Part shown: piece by piece, positions 7,878 through 48,672 of the stretch | Layout of the letters: each line of letters opens with the position of its first letter | How positions within the stretch are numbered: the first letter of the stretch is position 1 | Position numbers and translations under genes: made by a program | Notes under the pieces: model-generated | What the model was told of the DNA's origin: nothing | Seen by the model: only the letters and a program-made list of their open reading frames with translations | The model's database searches: none | Assembly (NCBI GenBank): GCA_021850805.1 | Contig: JAJZKO010000002.1 | Coordinates: 39,520-103,519 of the forward strand | Direction of reading: 5' to 3' | Length of the DNA: 64,000 bases | From: Candidatus Micrarchaeota archaeon | Lineage (GTDB): Archaea > Micrarchaeota > Micrarchaeia > Micrarchaeales > CABMGC01

Positions 7878-8926
7878 TTATTATGGCTAAAAAATATTCT
7901 GATGGAAGGGAAGAGTTCCATGTGGAGAAGGGAGACCCTGTAGGCATGATAGCTGCGCAGTCAATGGGCGAACCTGGAACGCAGATGGTCCTCAGGGCGT
8001 TCCACCTTGCAGGGATAGAATCAACCATATCCACATCTGGACTTCCGCGTATAGCAGAGCTTGTCGATGCGAAGAAGAGCCCCGCAACACCTATAACATA
8101 TGTCTATCTTGACAAGAGCATAAACAAGGATCTCGAGAAGGTAGTCGCACTCATGAAGAAGATAAACGAGGTGCGCATGTCTACAATAATGCGCCACGCC
8201 CCGATGGAGAATTTCGGGAAGGGTCTGATAAAGATCAGCCTCAGCGGGCAGGAACTTGAGTCTGAGCAGCTTACAGCCAAGCAGGTCGCGTCAAAGCTTG
8301 CCAAGGAGCTCGAGGTGGAAGCTTACGAGAAGGATGGTGCAGTATACATAAACGCCCATACAAAGGACGCAAAGAAGATAAGGGCACTCAGCACTAAAAT
8401 ATCAAAGATGGTTGTAAGCGGCATAGAGGGCGCAGGAAAGACTACAGTGCAGAAGGATAAGAATACCGGAGAGTTCTACATAATAGCCGCAGGCAGCAAC
8501 ATAGAGAGCATAATAAACGTCGATGGTGTGGACAAATCCCGCCTTACCACTAACGATGTATTTGCAATATACCGGCTCTTCGGGATAGAGGCTGCAAGGA
8601 ATTCGATAATAAAAGAGCTTAACCAGACGCTGAAGGAGCAGAAGATATCTGTCGATGAACGCCACCTGATGCTAATCGCAGACTCTATGACAAGCGCCGG
8701 CTCGATAAAAGGTGTCGGCAGGCACGGACTGAGCGGTCAGAAAAACTCTGTCCTTGCCAGGGCAGCATATGAAGAGACGGTAAAGCACCTGATACACGCA
8801 GCCGCTTTCGGCGAGATAGATCCGATGGAAGGAGTCACGGAGAACATACTCGTAGGCAAGCAGATACCGATAGGGACAGGTTCTGTGAAGCTCGGCATCA
8901 AGACAGAGCAGCCGAAAAAGAAATAG
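7874..8926 (+). CDS. rpoA2: DNA-directed RNA polymerase subunit A'' (Rpo1C)
   Basis: 350 aa. It overlaps the rpoA1 stop by 4 nt. Conserved GEPGTQM and the C-terminal ENILVGKQIPIGTG are present. ATG at 7883 is an alternative start. Confidence 0.93.
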   Translation: MIIMAKKYSDGREEFHVEKGDPVGMIAAQSMGEPGTQMVLRAFHLAGIESTISTSGLPRIAELVDAKKSPATPITYVYLDKSINKDLEKVVALMKKINEVRMSTIMRHAPMENFGKGLIKISLSGQELESEQLTAKQVASKLAKELEVEAYEKDGAVYINAHTKDAKKIRALSTKISKMVVSGIEGAGKTTVQKDKNTGEFYIIAAGSNIESIINVDGVDKSRLTTNDVFAIYRLFGIEAARNSIIKELNQTLKEQKISVDERHLMLIADSMTSAGSIKGVGRHGLSGQKNSVLARAAYEETVKHLIHAAAFGEIDPMEGVTENILVGKQIPIGTGSVKLGIKTEQPKKK

Positions 8927-8973
8927 CTAATAAAGGTATGCGTGTAATCATAAATGCTAAAAGCGGTGTATAA

Positions 8974-9198
8974 ATGAATCAGGAAAGACCATTCGATCTT
9001 CTGAACAAGGCTGTCGGCCAGCAGGTAATGATAAAACTAAAGAACGGAGACGACATAAGGGGAAAGGTGGTCTCGTTTGACATGCACATGAATATCGTGC
9101 TTGATAATGCGGAGCAGCTTGAGGAAGGAAACCTAAAGGCAAAGATAGGGACAATGCTGCTTAGGGGCGGAAACATACTATTTATATCTCCTGCGTAA
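8974..9198 (+). CDS. Sm-like (LSm/SmAP) RNA-binding protein
   Basis: 74 aa. Sm1/Sm2 pattern: V.IKLKNG..IRG.VVSFDMHMNIVLDNAE followed by LLRGGNILFISP. Confidence 0.85.
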   Translation: MNQERPFDLLNKAVGQQVMIKLKNGDDIRGKVVSFDMHMNIVLDNAEQLEEGNLKAKIGTMLLRGGNILFISPA

Positions 9199-9212
9199 TA
9201 TATACCTCTGTT

Positions 9213-9310
9213 GGGCTTCTGGCGCAACGGTAGCGCGCCTGCATGGCATGCAGGAGGTTGCGGGTTCGAAACCGGCGATTACCTCGCCTGAGAAAATCCC
9301 GCGAAGTCCA
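9213..9310 (+). tRNA. tRNA-Ala (anticodon GGC) with ~26-nt insert in the T-loop
   Basis: - Acceptor stem GGGCTTC/GAAGTCC with a G3:U70 pair and A73.
- D-arm GCGC-AACGGTA-GCGC.
- Anticodon arm CCTGC-ATGGCAT-GCAGG.
- The T-stem GCGGG (9260-9264) pairs with CCCGC (9298-9302), but 33 nt lie between them instead of 7.
- Removing about 9271-9296 restores the T-loop TTCGAAT. Confidence 0.8.
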
Positions 9311-9344
9311 TCACCTTTTCTGCACGACACATCAGAAGGCAACA

Positions 9345-10952
9345 TCAGTCCAGTGTAGTTATCCCCTTCTTCTCATATGCCACCTTCAACCCTGAGGCTA
9401 TTCCCCACGGATAGAAGAGCAGCACAGATACAACTACAACAATCGCCGATGCCTCTATAAATGGCACAGTATTATACAAACCTGTGCTCCCTATTGCGGT
9501 CATAAAGAGCAGGAACGCTATGTATACAATATACCATATTGAGTTGTTGAAGTGCTCCCGTACCTTGAACCAGTATGCGAATACCGCAACTGCAACAGCA
9601 AGTATCAATATCGCATAAGGCACAGACGGCCATCCGCTCCAGAAAACTATCAAAGATGCAGCTGCAAATGCAATTGGGGCTATCACAGGCCCTGCCCTGC
9701 CGAGAAGCGGTTTCCTTGTAGTCCCCTGCCTCCTTGATATGATCATTGCAACAGGGTTCGTTGAGAAGCCTATATAGCCTGCCACTACTGCATCTGTAAG
9801 AAGTCCGTAAATGGAAGGCAACGGTGCAGCTATAAAAGCAACCACGCTGCCAACTATTGCAAATATCACGAGTGATATATACGGTATCGCATAAGTCTCG
9901 TTCAGCTTTTTCATTGACTTATTCACTATCCCTGACCTTCCCATGGCAAAGAGCAGCCTTGATCCGCCGCCAAGATAGATATATCCTGTCACAAACGGGC
10001 CTATTATCCCTACAAAAGCCGCGATTACCAGCAGCCATAGAGCATTATAATTGCCTGCCAGATAAACGAATGGGTTGCCTACAAGGCTGGAAAGGCTTGA
10101 CCACTGCCCAGCGGCAGTTGCCCCGAGAGATGTTATCGCAGTGGAAGCCCAGTTTATCCCTCCGACGAAGACGGCATCGAAAAGCAGGTAGATGAGCGAC
10201 TGCCCTACTATCGTCAGTATTATGGCTTTCCACAAGAAACTCTTCGATTTGAGCTCCTCCGCGTAATCCGGTATCACCCTTATGCCTCCGAAGGCAAACA
10301 TCGCAAGTGGTATTGCAGAGAATATGCCTGCGAATCCAAACGGCGCGAACCCGCCGCTGTATCCTGTAAAGTTCTTCGCGTTGAAGAATACAAATGCAAG
10401 CCCAAGCGCAACGACAACATACGCTATAATCTTTATTACTCCAAATGCCGCTGTAGACCTTCCGAATTTTCTAACCCCGAAGTAGTTGAACGGCACGAAG
10501 AGCAGAAGCAGTACCACGCCTATAACTGCACCTACTAGCGTGGGCGCTCCCGATGAAGTTAGAAGCGTAGGGAAGAAGTAATCCAAGCCTTCCACAACCG
10601 CAAGAGCCTCGACAGGCGGTATAAAAAGATACCATATCAGGTCCGCGAACGCATTTATGAGATTGGTGAACCTTCCGTGAGTGTACAGGGAATACCTAGA
10701 AGGCCCTCCCGCTTCAGGATGCACGGCAGAGAGCTCGACATATGTAAGTCCTATCGTAGCGTAAAAGAGCGCCCCTATAATCCAGGCAAGTATACTGCCA
10801 GGGCCGGCTATCGCAGTCATTCCCGCCGGACTGAATAATGCCGCAGTTCCTACTGCACCAACGACTCCTATTATGAAAATCTGAAACAGGCTAAGTTCCT
10901 TCTTAAGCCCAGGTTTGCGTTTTGTATTTTTACTTGCCGTTCCAACACCCAC
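9345..10952 (-). CDS. amino acid/polyamine (APC superfamily) permease
   Basis: 535 aa. It is highly hydrophobic, with at least 12 predicted TM segments, and glycine-rich helices typical of APC transporters. The family-level call rests only on overall pattern. Confidence 0.6.
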   Translation of the reverse strand: MGVGTASKNTKRKPGLKKELSLFQIFIIGVVGAVGTAALFSPAGMTAIAGPGSILAWIIGALFYATIGLTYVELSAVHPEAGGPSRYSLYTHGRFTNLINAFADLIWYLFIPPVEALAVVEGLDYFFPTLLTSSGAPTLVGAVIGVVLLLLFVPFNYFGVRKFGRSTAAFGVIKIIAYVVVALGLAFVFFNAKNFTGYSGGFAPFGFAGIFSAIPLAMFAFGGIRVIPDYAEELKSKSFLWKAIILTIVGQSLIYLLFDAVFVGGINWASTAITSLGATAAGQWSSLSSLVGNPFVYLAGNYNALWLLVIAAFVGIIGPFVTGYIYLGGGSRLLFAMGRSGIVNKSMKKLNETYAIPYISLVIFAIVGSVVAFIAAPLPSIYGLLTDAVVAGYIGFSTNPVAMIISRRQGTTRKPLLGRAGPVIAPIAFAAASLIVFWSGWPSVPYAILILAVAVAVFAYWFKVREHFNNSIWYIVYIAFLLFMTAIGSTGLYNTVPFIEASAIVVVVSVLLFYPWGIASGLKVAYEKKGITTLD

Positions 10953-21026: not shown

Positions 21027-21136
21027 CGGGGTCGCCGAGATTTTCATGGCATAAAGCCCTTTGAATTCCCTAATATTTTATACTCGGGTCATGTGCTCCC
21101 TAAGCACAGAGCCTAACCAGACTAGCAGACGACCCC
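21027..21136 (-). tRNA. tRNA-Pro-like gene (anticodon reads AGG) with 36 extra nt in the T-arm
   Basis: All elements are read on the minus strand.
- Acceptor stem GGGGTCG/CGACCCC.
- D-arm contains GG.
- Anticodon arm TGTGC-TTAGGGA-GCACA, with G37.
- The T-stem CCGAG/CTCGG encloses 43 nt.
- A canonical TTCAAAT loop appears only if TATAAAATATTAGGGAA and GGGCTTTATGCCATGAAAA are both removed.
- The position between rpoN and S2 is where a tRNA is found in other archaea. Confidence 0.6.
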
Positions 21137-43182: not shown

Positions 43183-44337
43183 TTATGGCTGCATCCAGTC
43201 TATCTCATAGTATTCGTTCTTGCTTCCCGAGATTTTTATCTGCCTTACCTTGTAATATGTAACCGAAGTCTCCCTGTCAGCTATGGCAACTATAAGTTCC
43301 ATCTTCTTCTCTTTGGCAGCCTTTATTGCTCCTGCAAATTCTGCCCCGCCTATGTACTCCTCCTCGCTCAGCGAGAGCATGCAGTATCGCGGAGCCGCGC
43401 TGTCAGGGTTTTCCGCATCGCCTCCCTTCCTATGGTAAAGTATAAAGTCTATACCCACCTTTTTCGCCACCGTGCCTCCGGTAACGGCCAGTATGAACGT
43501 CTTCCTCACAGAATGTGCAACCCTTATTACCCTCGCCCATTCCGATATAAGCAGCCTAGACTCACGCGGGAATACGTGTATCACATGCTTTGAGTGTATC
43601 CAGTCCTTTGCCCCCTCCTTAACCGGCTTTGCGCCTGGAAAATACAGTCTGAAATGAGTGCCGAACTTGAAGCCTGTCTTTATCACGTAACCTTTCTCCC
43701 TCCAGTCCCTGTAGACTTCGTATAAGCTTAGGAAATCAGCCCTCCTTGCCTTGGCAAGACGGATCAGCTCCTGCTTGCTTATATTAAGCTTCAGCATGCC
43801 CATCTCCATCAGGAAGAGGCTCTCGTATACATCAAGTTTGTTGAGCTGCCCTCTCTCGGCAGCTTTGTAAGATCCGTACTGTCCGAACCAGAGAGTCTCA
43901 TAAAGCTCCTTACCTTTCTCATTATCGTCCACTATTGATATGAGGTCGCTCTTGAAGAAAATCCCTGATACAGAGTAATCAGGAAGCGATAACCCCGCTT
44001 TCGGGTAGGATTTCACAGGGGTCTTGTCAGGCGGCTTATATTCCGATGCAGTCCCTCTTACTACCAGCCCCCTGTCCCTCCAATCCTTATATGTGAAGTA
44101 TCTCGCAGTGAATTTCTTGTCGCTCCAGAATCTTGCTGCGATATCATTAAAGGAGACGCCTCTGCCCATACTGGTGCATTTTGCGTTCCTTACGTCTATA
44201 AGATACAGCGCCTCTTCAGGGATGAGCATTGTGCGCCTGCCTGCCTCTTCCCCGAAGAATCCTTTCTTAAGCAGATCCTTGGATGACTGGTCGCTTGCAA
44301 ATATGCTCTTCCTTGACTTAAACTCTATCTCAAGCAT
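43183..44337 (-). CDS. endA: tRNA-splicing endonuclease EndA, long multi-unit form
   Basis: - Catalytic unit: YEVYRDWREKGYVIKTGFKFGTHFRLYFPG...HSKHVIHV...AHSVRKTFILAV, carrying the Y/H/K triad.
- N-terminal side: a partial EndA-like unit (YFTYKDWRDRGLVVRG).
- C-terminal side: a structural-unit-like segment (ELIVAIADRETSVTYYKV).
- The start was set at ATG 44337, 4 nt after the GT4 stop. The ORF is open up to 44490. Confidence 0.8.
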   Translation of the reverse strand: MLEIEFKSRKSIFASDQSSKDLLKKGFFGEEAGRRTMLIPEEALYLIDVRNAKCTSMGRGVSFNDIAARFWSDKKFTARYFTYKDWRDRGLVVRGTASEYKPPDKTPVKSYPKAGLSLPDYSVSGIFFKSDLISIVDDNEKGKELYETLWFGQYGSYKAAERGQLNKLDVYESLFLMEMGMLKLNISKQELIRLAKARRADFLSLYEVYRDWREKGYVIKTGFKFGTHFRLYFPGAKPVKEGAKDWIHSKHVIHVFPRESRLLISEWARVIRVAHSVRKTFILAVTGGTVAKKVGIDFILYHRKGGDAENPDSAAPRYCMLSLSEEEYIGGAEFAGAIKAAKEKKMELIVAIADRETSVTYYKVRQIKISGSKNEYYEIDWMQP

Positions 44338-45522: not shown

Positions 45523-48500
45523 TTATCCAGGAATGGAATAATTATTATGTATCCAGCTCGGCTTAGGCACCACATAAGGTAGCGTGCCTGTGAAATTGTC
45601 AAGCTTGAATATCATTATATGATTACCAGTATTATTCACATAATTGACTCCTGTCACGTTTGAAGGATACACCAAAGTGAATCCGGGAAGCTTCCCAAGG
45701 AAGAACCCCCTATAGTAATTCGACTGGTAGAACTCGGAGGGTGCATTGGTGATCGTGTCATTCGGCCCGTTTGGCATGTATATGGCCATGAAGCTTAGGA
45801 ACGTCTGGTTATTGCTCGTAGGCACCGCTCCCTCAAAGAAGCTATCAGATACTGCTATATTGGTCTCCGTGCCGTTCTGGTAAAAGAGACGCACTGGCGC
45901 TCCTGTAGAGAGGAACGATTCGGGCATGCAATACGTAGTATTTCCTACAGTTCCGAATGGGAAACTGCCAGTGAACTGCAGGGCTTTTATGTAAACGTTT
46001 GTACTATTTGAGATCGAGCAATAATCGCCTATGCTTGACCCTGTGCTGGTCAAGACCGATTCCGGTATCATTATATATGACGGGTCGTGAGCAAGCTCGC
46101 ATCTGGAAGTTCCAAGCACATAAGACTGACCATACTGCTGCCCTGCGCTTATTGCAAAAGTCCTGGTGGTCTCATTAACACCTACGCAAGCCAGGAAATC
46201 CAGCGCACCCCACTTGGGTACAAGCTGATCATCGAAAAGCACATAGCCCGCCTGCGCAGAGTCCATGAAATGCGCAAGTTCCGTATAATTATATCCATCA
46301 GCAGGACCTAAGACGTACTGGGCCGCAACCTTGTAATCATATGTAGGCACCGCATTGTCGCCCCTTATAACCGCGTTGCTGTTTCCAAACCAGTTAATCC
46401 AATCCCCGTAATCCCACCATGAGAGTATCCTTGGTGCGTTAGGCCCGACGTTTGCCCTCATCCAATCCGTGGCCGCTATCCAGCTTGGCGATATTGTATT
46501 GCAATACAGGAAATTGCCAATCTGATTATTGCTATTCTGTATGGTAGTGCAGTTGGGGTTAAGGGCTGCCGCAGAAGCAGAATAAAGTACAGGTATGAAT
46601 ATTGACATAGCCAGCAGGCCTATCAGCGCATATGCCGTATAAACGTAAATCTTATCCTTAAGCCCCTTCTCTGCTATGATTATTATCTCCCCTATTATAA
46701 CCGATAACGCTATGGCATATGCCACTGCGAAATGCGGAAGATACTTGACCTCGCTGAACCCTGCAAAAGCAAGCACGATTATTACAGACACTGCAAGTAT
46801 GCTTGTCTGCGAGTTCTTGTAAAAGATATTCATTGCAGATATGATAAGGAAGATCGCCAGTACACCAAGGACGAGAAGATTGCCTGGCAGATGCAGCGCA
46901 ACCGAACCCATGCCTGCGCTGTCAAAGTTGAAGTTCAGCCCTGTCGGTGCAAACTCCTGCACCGTCATGAAAAGCGGCGTATTAGGGGTTGTAAAATGCG
47001 CGCCTATGCTCAAGTAATTCAATATTGGCTTACCTAACGGAGTAAAGAAAGTAACGAGCAGGCCGATTACTATTATTGCTGCAAGCATAGCTATTCTTGT
47101 TATTAAGAGATCCTTCTCCGGTACATCGATACTCATAACCTTGCTTGTGTATTTCCTTATGCTCTTGGGCAGATCATCTGTCCTTGGCAGGTAGTCCAAG
47201 AGGAATATGACTGCAAGAGCAAAGACAGGTATTGCTATAATTATAGGAATGCCTGCTACGCTCGGTGTCCTGTTCGTAAGTGATGCTCCGTATGGCGCAT
47301 AGAGCAGGTAAGTTATTATTATTACCCCTATAACGATTGCATTCATTATGTAGAAATCAGTGTTATCCTTCTCCCTTAGTAGATTAACAGCTCCTTGCAG
47401 GAATATGTAAAGCCCTATGATTGCCGCAGGTACAAAGTAATAGTGTGCACCTAGGAAGTTGGAGGCAAACGCTATTCCAGCAAGTACTGCATAGCGCTTC
47501 TCCTTCATGTTCCTTATCGCAACGATATAAGTGGCAAAGAAGAAGAAGAGCGCAAATATGCCCCACGGTTCGAGAAGCTGCTCCCCAGCTATGAACGGCT
47601 GGTAGATAACCGGCATCGCGGCAACAAGCGTAGCGCCAAACAGGGCAGCTTTCTCCCCGTAATCATATTTTATGAAGATGAATACCACGAATACAAGGAG
47701 CGCGGCAACAAGGGGCGGATAAAGGCTGCTCACCTGGCTAAGGAGCGTATTATTCAGATATTTATAGTGGAAATTGGTATTTGCAAGGTCATACCAGTAT
47801 ACCTCCAGATACGGCACAAGAGGCTGTATCCTGTGATTGACTCCCTGCACAACAGACGGCCACGCGGCATGGTCAAACGGTATCTGATAGCCGTAAGTAA
47901 GTATATACTGCGCGCTTACCATGTCAAAATAAGGATCGAACTCGAAGTATTTCGGCGCTACTCCAAAGCTGAGCATACGGCTCGTAAAAGTGAATATTAG
48001 AAGAAGAACAAAAAGGAAAGTTATTATGTTGCTGGTGCTCAGAAGCGGCTTCTTACTGCGGTGCGCATGTACTTTGTCTCCATGAGCATCTCTGGTAAAG
48101 GCGATCTCACGGTGAAGATGACGTTCTTCAAGGCGTCTCTTCTCCTCCTTGTGCGATTCGGAGATGCGCTTCCTCTCCTCTTCGCTTGAATCCTTGAGAA
48201 GAGCCATCTCGCGTTCGTGTTCCTCTTCAAGTTCCTTCTCCTTCTTCCTATGCTCCTCAAGCATCGCAGCTCCTTCCTCGCCTCCATGCTCATGTATCCA
48301 CTTCCTTACGGAGTGTATGCTTGACGAATCGAGATCAGCAGGCAGAGCTCCTGTTCCTGCACTGCCTTTTAACATGCCCAAGCCAGAGTTCAGGTCAAGC
48401 ACTCCCTGCTTAATGCAGAGCACAAGGCCTATCAATGAAAGAATTATTACATTGGCGTTGTACAGCCATATCGAGTACGAAAAGAAATGCAGATATGGTA

Positions 48501-48672
48501 TCAGGTACGCCTCAAGCCACTGTAGTGTAGGGGGAAAGATGAGTCCGAATATTACGCCTATCGAATATATCTCCACCCTTGGCATTCTTGTTTTTCCCAG
48601 CAGCGCAAAGGCAAGGAGGAAACCTGGCACAATGACAGCCAGTATGCCAAATAGTATTACCAAAAATAGCAC
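45523..48672 (-). CDS. aglB: archaeal oligosaccharyltransferase AglB (STT3 family) with long N-terminal extension
   Basis: 1049 aa, GTG start. It contains FEFDPYFD (first acidic loop motif) and WWDYGDWI (WWDYG motif). About 210 extra N-terminal residues include three hydrophobic helices and a highly charged E/K/R/H segment. Confidence 0.9.
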   Translation of the reverse strand: MLFLVILFGILAVIVPGFLLAFALLGKTRMPRVEIYSIGVIFGLIFPPTLQWLEAYLIPYLHFFSYSIWLYNANVIILSLIGLVLCIKQGVLDLNSGLGMLKGSAGTGALPADLDSSSIHSVRKWIHEHGGEEGAAMLEEHRKKEKELEEEHEREMALLKDSSEEERKRISESHKEEKRRLEERHLHREIAFTRDAHGDKVHAHRSKKPLLSTSNIITFLFVLLLIFTFTSRMLSFGVAPKYFEFDPYFDMVSAQYILTYGYQIPFDHAAWPSVVQGVNHRIQPLVPYLEVYWYDLANTNFHYKYLNNTLLSQVSSLYPPLVAALLVFVVFIFIKYDYGEKAALFGATLVAAMPVIYQPFIAGEQLLEPWGIFALFFFFATYIVAIRNMKEKRYAVLAGIAFASNFLGAHYYFVPAAIIGLYIFLQGAVNLLREKDNTDFYIMNAIVIGVIIITYLLYAPYGASLTNRTPSVAGIPIIIAIPVFALAVIFLLDYLPRTDDLPKSIRKYTSKVMSIDVPEKDLLITRIAMLAAIIVIGLLVTFFTPLGKPILNYLSIGAHFTTPNTPLFMTVQEFAPTGLNFNFDSAGMGSVALHLPGNLLVLGVLAIFLIISAMNIFYKNSQTSILAVSVIIVLAFAGFSEVKYLPHFAVAYAIALSVIIGEIIIIAEKGLKDKIYVYTAYALIGLLAMSIFIPVLYSASAAALNPNCTTIQNSNNQIGNFLYCNTISPSWIAATDWMRANVGPNAPRILSWWDYGDWINWFGNSNAVIRGDNAVPTYDYKVAAQYVLGPADGYNYTELAHFMDSAQAGYVLFDDQLVPKWGALDFLACVGVNETTRTFAISAGQQYGQSYVLGTSRCELAHDPSYIMIPESVLTSTGSSIGDYCSISNSTNVYIKALQFTGSFPFGTVGNTTYCMPESFLSTGAPVRLFYQNGTETNIAVSDSFFEGAVPTSNNQTFLSFMAIYMPNGPNDTITNAPSEFYQSNYYRGFFLGKLPGFTLVYPSNVTGVNYVNNTGNHIMIFKLDNFTGTLPYVVPKPSWIHNNYSIPG

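Follow-up and report, generated by a model that had tools for sequence, protein, structure and literature searches.

The tRNA-Ala(GGC) gene at positions 9213-9310 (+ strand) of the window (the whole 64,000-nt stretch of DNA that was analyzed) carries 26 extra nt in its T-loop, which raises the question of whether these nucleotides are spliced out of the transcript or stay in the tRNA. The host is a tiny, ARMAN-like member of the Micrarchaeota and is represented by a metagenome-assembled bin of 882 kb (83.7% complete). The acceptor stem of 7 bp (9213-9219 with 9303-9309) includes the G3:U70 pair, the D stem has 4 bp, the anticodon stem has 5 bp with the anticodon GGC at 9245-9247, and the two halves of the T-stem (9260-9264 and 9298-9302) lie 33 nt apart. 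All coordinates that an earlier note, made from the sequence alone, had given for these arms were correct, as were those for the insert (9271-9296) and its inner hairpin (9274-9278 with 9284-9288). The 5' exon (9213-9270, tRNA positions 1-59) supplies the 5' strand of the acceptor stem, the D arm, the anticodon, the 5' strand of the T-stem and T-loop positions 54-59, and the 3' exon (9297-9310, positions 60-73) supplies the 3' strands of the T-stem and acceptor stem and the discriminator A73; CCA is not encoded. The exons are collinear and adjacent, so that this is not a split or permuted tRNA gene.

Standard tools do not recover the intact gene. ARAGORN makes no call, returning only noise when run at a low threshold with introns allowed, and the Rfam model RF00005 matches 9213-9284 only (39.8 bits), with the acceptor and T stems mispaired with the insert. 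Because the stems of this match are broken, the covariance-model check proposed in the earlier note found no intact uninterrupted alternative fold for 9213-9310. The minimum free energy fold of the complete gene is a full cloverleaf with an enlarged T-loop that contains the 5-bp hairpin (z -2.35). When the 26 nt are excised in silico, ARAGORN calls the remaining 72 nt as tRNA-Ala(GGC); the fold of this sequence is a clean cloverleaf and its T-loop is the one found in intron-less orthologues, as expected from the claim that removal of the insert leaves a canonical loop. Genomes of this kind look as if they lacked tRNA-Ala(GGC) when annotated with ARAGORN, which overlooks the gene, or with Rfam, which cuts it short, and the value of recognizing the insert thus lies mainly in annotation.

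Where the insert would be cut is fixed by geometry rather than by the mature product. Owing to runs of A, excision in any of three frames (9269-9294, 9270-9295 or 9271-9296, corresponding to positions 57/58, 58/59 and 59/60) leaves an identical mature loop, a slide of 2 nt and not of the 1 nt given in the earlier note. Only the 59/60 frame forms a bulge-helix-bulge (BHB), the other two having no such motif. The junction favored in that note was therefore the right one, and its view that the exact junction could not be fixed is superseded, since BHB geometry places it at 59/60 both here and across 92 homologous introns. In this motif the 5-bp T-stem is the outer helix h, and the central helix H pairs U54 U55 C56 G57 (9265-9268) with the intron strand AGAA (9291-9294), giving three Watson-Crick pairs and a G57.A9291 mismatch. 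The 5' splice-site bulge, AAA, consists of A58, A59 and the first intron base (9269-9271), and the 3' splice-site bulge, AAU, of the last two intron bases and U60 (9295-9297), which is the standard arrangement of two 3-nt bulges around a 4-bp central helix. The intron-internal helix h' (9272-9290) is also present and comprises one pair, a C.U mismatch and the 5-bp hairpin. Because the mismatch leaves the central helix short of the four standard pairs of a strict hBHBh' motif, this copy is a slightly relaxed form. Folded in isolation, the BHB structure is less stable than the open-loop fold by 1.1-2.2 kcal/mol, with a pair probability for H of ~0.15; many homologues with perfect central helices score equally low, suggesting that enzyme binding probably stabilizes the BHB fold.

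Examination of 61 related genomes yielded 59 readable Ala(GGC) genes: the loop is exactly 7 nt long in 18 of them, and the other 41 contain an insert (13-44 nt). The exons are nearly invariant across these orthologues (the 5' exon is identical or nearly so in all 59) and the insert interiors cannot be aligned. Across the 41 inserts, the central helix at 59/60 is 96% paired, with all four pairs present in 34, versus at most 54% at the other eight registers from 54/55 to 62/63, which were rejected on that basis. Addition of loci from a pattern search extended the set to 92 distinct introns (L188, the same gene as L031, was left out); matches to the exon-derived pattern were almost confined to Micrarchaeota records. 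In the wider set, bases -6 to -3 are 95% paired with T-loop positions 54-57; every intron has at least three of the four pairs and 75 have all four. The 5' bulge reads AAN in every homologue and the 3' bulge AAT in 76 of 93 rows. Insert lengths range from 13 to 48 nt with one exception, an Ala(GGC) homologue (L120) whose 94-nt T-loop insert is far longer than the others. Across the homologue set the motif is conserved and the intron interior is free. Complementarity kept at a single register against a freely varying interior, combined with precise absence of the insert from some orthologues, is the strong comparative evidence for an excised intron. The earlier note had regarded introns outside 37/38 as rare; in this lineage they are common, given the 41 of 59 orthologues with an insert and the T-loop introns of five further tRNA genes in this genome.

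The window itself encodes a candidate for the cleaving enzyme, a 384-aa tRNA splicing endonuclease EndA (43183-44337, - strand; PF01974 and PF02778). The earlier note had taken this gene to encode a broad-specificity endonuclease, in keeping with which residues 4-384 align over the full length with residues 7-387 of the epsilon2 enzyme of ARMAN-2 (4FZ2; 9W2K) at an E value of 6e-153; other EndA types match only in part (E 4e-26 at best). The chain is thus a three-unit protein of ~390 aa collinear with ARMAN-2 EndA, and the alignment shows the key residues to be identical: the catalytic triad Y236/H251/K282 corresponds to Y232/H248/K279, the ASL residues Y160/K161 (numbering from PMC12397907) to Y157/K158, and the dimer residues K224 (pocket Lys) and D357 (L10 Asp) (numbering from PMC3239211) to K220 and D354. 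The genome also contains RtcB and RNase P RNA. Near-full-length EndA homologues were found in 58 of the 61 genomes searched, and intron presence showed no relation to endonuclease type, the intron-less relatives also carrying a near-full-length epsilon2 gene.

Taken together, we consider it about 95% probable that this locus is a functional tRNA-Ala(GGC) gene of a Micrarchaeales archaeon with a protein-spliced archaeal intron at position 59/60. We infer that the precursor is transcribed, cleaved and ligated. In the precursor, the T-stem would serve as the outer helix, and the central helix would form between T-loop positions 54-57 and intron bases 9291-9294. The two 3-nt bulges would contain the bonds to be cut, with the intron hairpin closing the motif. 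The epsilon2 EndA is predicted to cut at 9270/9271 and 9296/9297, and RtcB would then join the exons to restore the 7-nt T-loop, following the known pathway of EndA and then RtcB (PMC4090602); RNase P, a 3' nuclease and the CCA enzyme would finish the ends of the tRNA.

The outermost central-helix pair, that of position 57, is A-U in 58 of the 92 introns, G-C in 17, G-U in 4 and a purine-purine combination in 13 (A.G in 7, G.A in 4 and G.G in 2), and A.C in none; columns 54-56 barely vary. A tree-aware covariation analysis of position 57 gave four independent pairs, two agreeing and none disagreeing; with related genomes not independent and only four contrasts available, this covariation is not significant by itself. 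We suggest, tentatively and as something of a long shot, that at this place in the 59/60 introns of Micrarchaeales purine-purine combinations are allowed and A.C is always excluded, a preference that would amount to a hitherto undescribed rule for substrates of the epsilon2 enzyme, and that the fixed G57.A of this genus could tune the rate of Ala(GGC) splicing. A stronger version, in which the intron is real but is spliced slowly or conditionally on account of G57.A and so restricts how much tRNA-Ala(GGC) is available, as a regulatory or rate-limiting intron, we consider very unlikely. Fixation of the mismatch in all three species of the genus, its presence in a distant genome (G051) and the marginal stability of the isolated BHB fold would fit such a role, but the frequency of purine-purine pairs among the homologues, together with a similar pair in the 53/54 intron of a tRNA-Pro gene in the window, looks like simple tolerance; moreover, the ARMAN-2 epsilon2 enzyme cuts even an hBH motif without h' (PMC3239211), and 18 relatives live without the intron.

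Retention of the insert, whether in a pseudogene or in a working tRNA with an enlarged T-loop, with GCC codons read by tRNA-Ala(UGC), is very unlikely. This genome has intact Ala(UGC) and Ala(CGC) genes, and the failure of standard scanners to call Ala(GGC) would agree with a defective gene, but in relatives from two families the exons are the same or deviate by 1-3 bases with no decay, the gene can be read in 59 of 61 genomes, and the insert keeps its complementarity at just those bases that have to pair in a BHB. In addition, the D-loop/T-loop elbow of established tRNA structure would be disrupted by a T-loop of 33 nt. The earlier note had pointed out that another intact Ala(GGC) gene would speak against splicing of this one; ARAGORN, Rfam, an insertion-tolerant profile scan and an exact search found none in the 83.7%-complete assembly. 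An assembly artefact or the scar of an integrated element has next to no probability: the genome is a metagenome-assembled bin and integrating elements have been suggested as a remote source of such introns (Fujishima 2011, PMC3239211), but two congeners carry the same intron in independent assemblies with only one change, in the hairpin loop (9282), which rules out assembly error, and neither a duplicated 3' tRNA end or integrase beside the gene nor another copy of the insert of at least 13 nt in the genome was found.

On an RpoA' tree of the 59 genomes the intron state changes at least 13 times, in both main families and always precisely; shuffled states gave a mean of 15.9 changes, and 13 of 300 shuffles were as low as the observed value. 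Several intron-less tips are nested among intron-bearing tips, a pattern consistent with an old intron that was lost exactly on several occasions, but the number of changes does not distinguish loss from gain. Since its interior varies freely and it has been gained or lost repeatedly, the intron probably has no function beyond being removable. The locus can be used to study the exact loss or regain of tRNA introns, and the homologues form a ready-made series of natural substrates for the epsilon2 enzyme. Two routes of spread were considered and rejected for this genome. No match to LAGLIDADG_3 (PF14528, the one homing-endonuclease family searched) was found in the 84%-complete assembly or beside the gene, and the absence of a shared stretch of at least 13 nt spoke against intron transposition within the genome. 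In one relative (G015), the Ala(GGC) and Ala(UGC) genes (L015 and L059) both have similar 25-nt introns at 59/60, a pair that suggests copying of introns between isoacceptor genes.

The gene lies between an Sm-like (LSm) protein gene (8974-9198, + strand; PF01423, E 5e-22) and an amino-acid permease gene. The Sm gene is the last of the rpoB-rpoA run, and Ala(GGC) adjoins rpoA' downstream in most relatives whether or not the intron is present. Because the tRNA starts 14 nt after the Sm stop codon, it probably shares a transcript with the rpo-Sm run. A sigma-70 promoter scan, a model not suited to archaea, gave nothing above chance, and comparison of positions 8900-9500 with three mine-drainage metatranscriptome contig sets from the same study returned only a partial match, to the tRNA-Ala of another organism, which speaks neither for nor against splicing.

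T-loop introns also occur in five further tRNA genes of this genome (G000). Arg(UCU) (C19:36808-36896) has a 14-nt intron at 59/60 with a perfect central helix, Arg(CCU) (C16:23416-23503) a 13-nt intron at 59/60, Leu(CAA) (C4:40354-40450) a 12-nt intron whose only four-pair helix is at 58/59, and Ser(CGA) (C13:36591-36712) a 24-nt intron at 59/60 and a second insert, apparently at 30/31. The fifth, tRNA-Pro(AGG), lies in the window (21027-21136, - strand), is missed by ARAGORN and Rfam, and has two T-loop introns, one of 17 nt at 53/54 with G.A at the end of H and one of 19 nt at 59/60. The anticodon of this tRNA-Pro, with A34, is AGG in all 31 family-f1 genomes read, and UGG in the best match from nine genomes belonging to the other two families. 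By pattern search, four near-complete f1 genomes have only AGG and CGG tRNA-Pro genes, which would leave the reading of CCA to A34 or I34; a PF00383 deaminase was not found in G000.

The remaining unusual loci include a tRNA-Leu(UAA) (C21:10123-10229) with a D-loop insert of ~21 nt and a Leu-like tRNA with a long variable arm (C25:86000-86084), whose loop reads UAC, whose anticodon stem is weak and which scores 33 bits with Rfam; the latter is perhaps a degenerate gene or an integration remnant. A tRNA-Ile(UAU) gene (C4:44065-44152, - strand) has a 13-nt canonical intron, and no match to TiaS was found in the assembly; ARMAN-2 likewise has tRNA-Ile(UAU) without TiaS (PMC3239211). Identical tRNA copies occur at contig ends, Pro(CGG) three times and Trp and Ser(UGA) twice (C2, C3 and C24; C6 and C10; C16 and C25). 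C2 and C3, which both end in tRNA-Pro(CGG), resemble near-duplicates of 26 kb; they may represent an integrated element in its strain variants, or overlaps in the assembly. A 1049-aa ORF in the window (45523-48672, - strand) has no Pfam match.

Judged by its sequence, the Ala(GGC) intron has every testable feature of an archaeal BHB intron except four standard pairs in the central helix. The combination of a 59/60 intron and an epsilon2 enzyme in Micrarchaeota has been known since 2011, when Fujishima et al. described such introns in Candidatus Micrarchaeum acidiphilum ARMAN-2 (PMC3239211). In that organism 56% of tRNA genes are disrupted, pre-tRNA-Pro(GGG) has introns at 53/54 and 59/60, and pre-tRNA-Cys(GCA) has a 13-nt relaxed 59/60 intron (hBH) that recombinant epsilon2 EndA cuts in vitro (PMC3239211). 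Since an intron of this kind had already been described and shown to be cut in the lineage, the present case is an ordinary one. It resembles the ARMAN-2 examples in phylum, 59/60 position, epsilon2 enzyme type and a short, protein-spliced BHB-type intron, and differs from them in the host tRNA-Ala(GGC), the 26-nt length, the inner helix h' and the central helix ending in G57.A. Non-canonical sites in Thermoproteales and other Crenarchaeota include 53/54, 56/57 and 59/60 (reviewed in PMC4090602), and those introns share the motif, class of position and chemistry (EndA, then RtcB) seen or predicted here; however, they are cut by (alpha-beta)2 enzymes with a CSL loop, whereas the enzyme here is epsilon2 with an ASL loop, and the intron transposition between tRNA genes known from Thermoproteales (PMC4033280) is not evident for the Ala(GGC) intron within this genome. 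Finally, the canonical 37/38 introns, present in seven genes of this genome, have the same hBHBh' architecture, but build it on the anticodon stem as the outer helix where the Ala(GGC) intron uses the T-stem.
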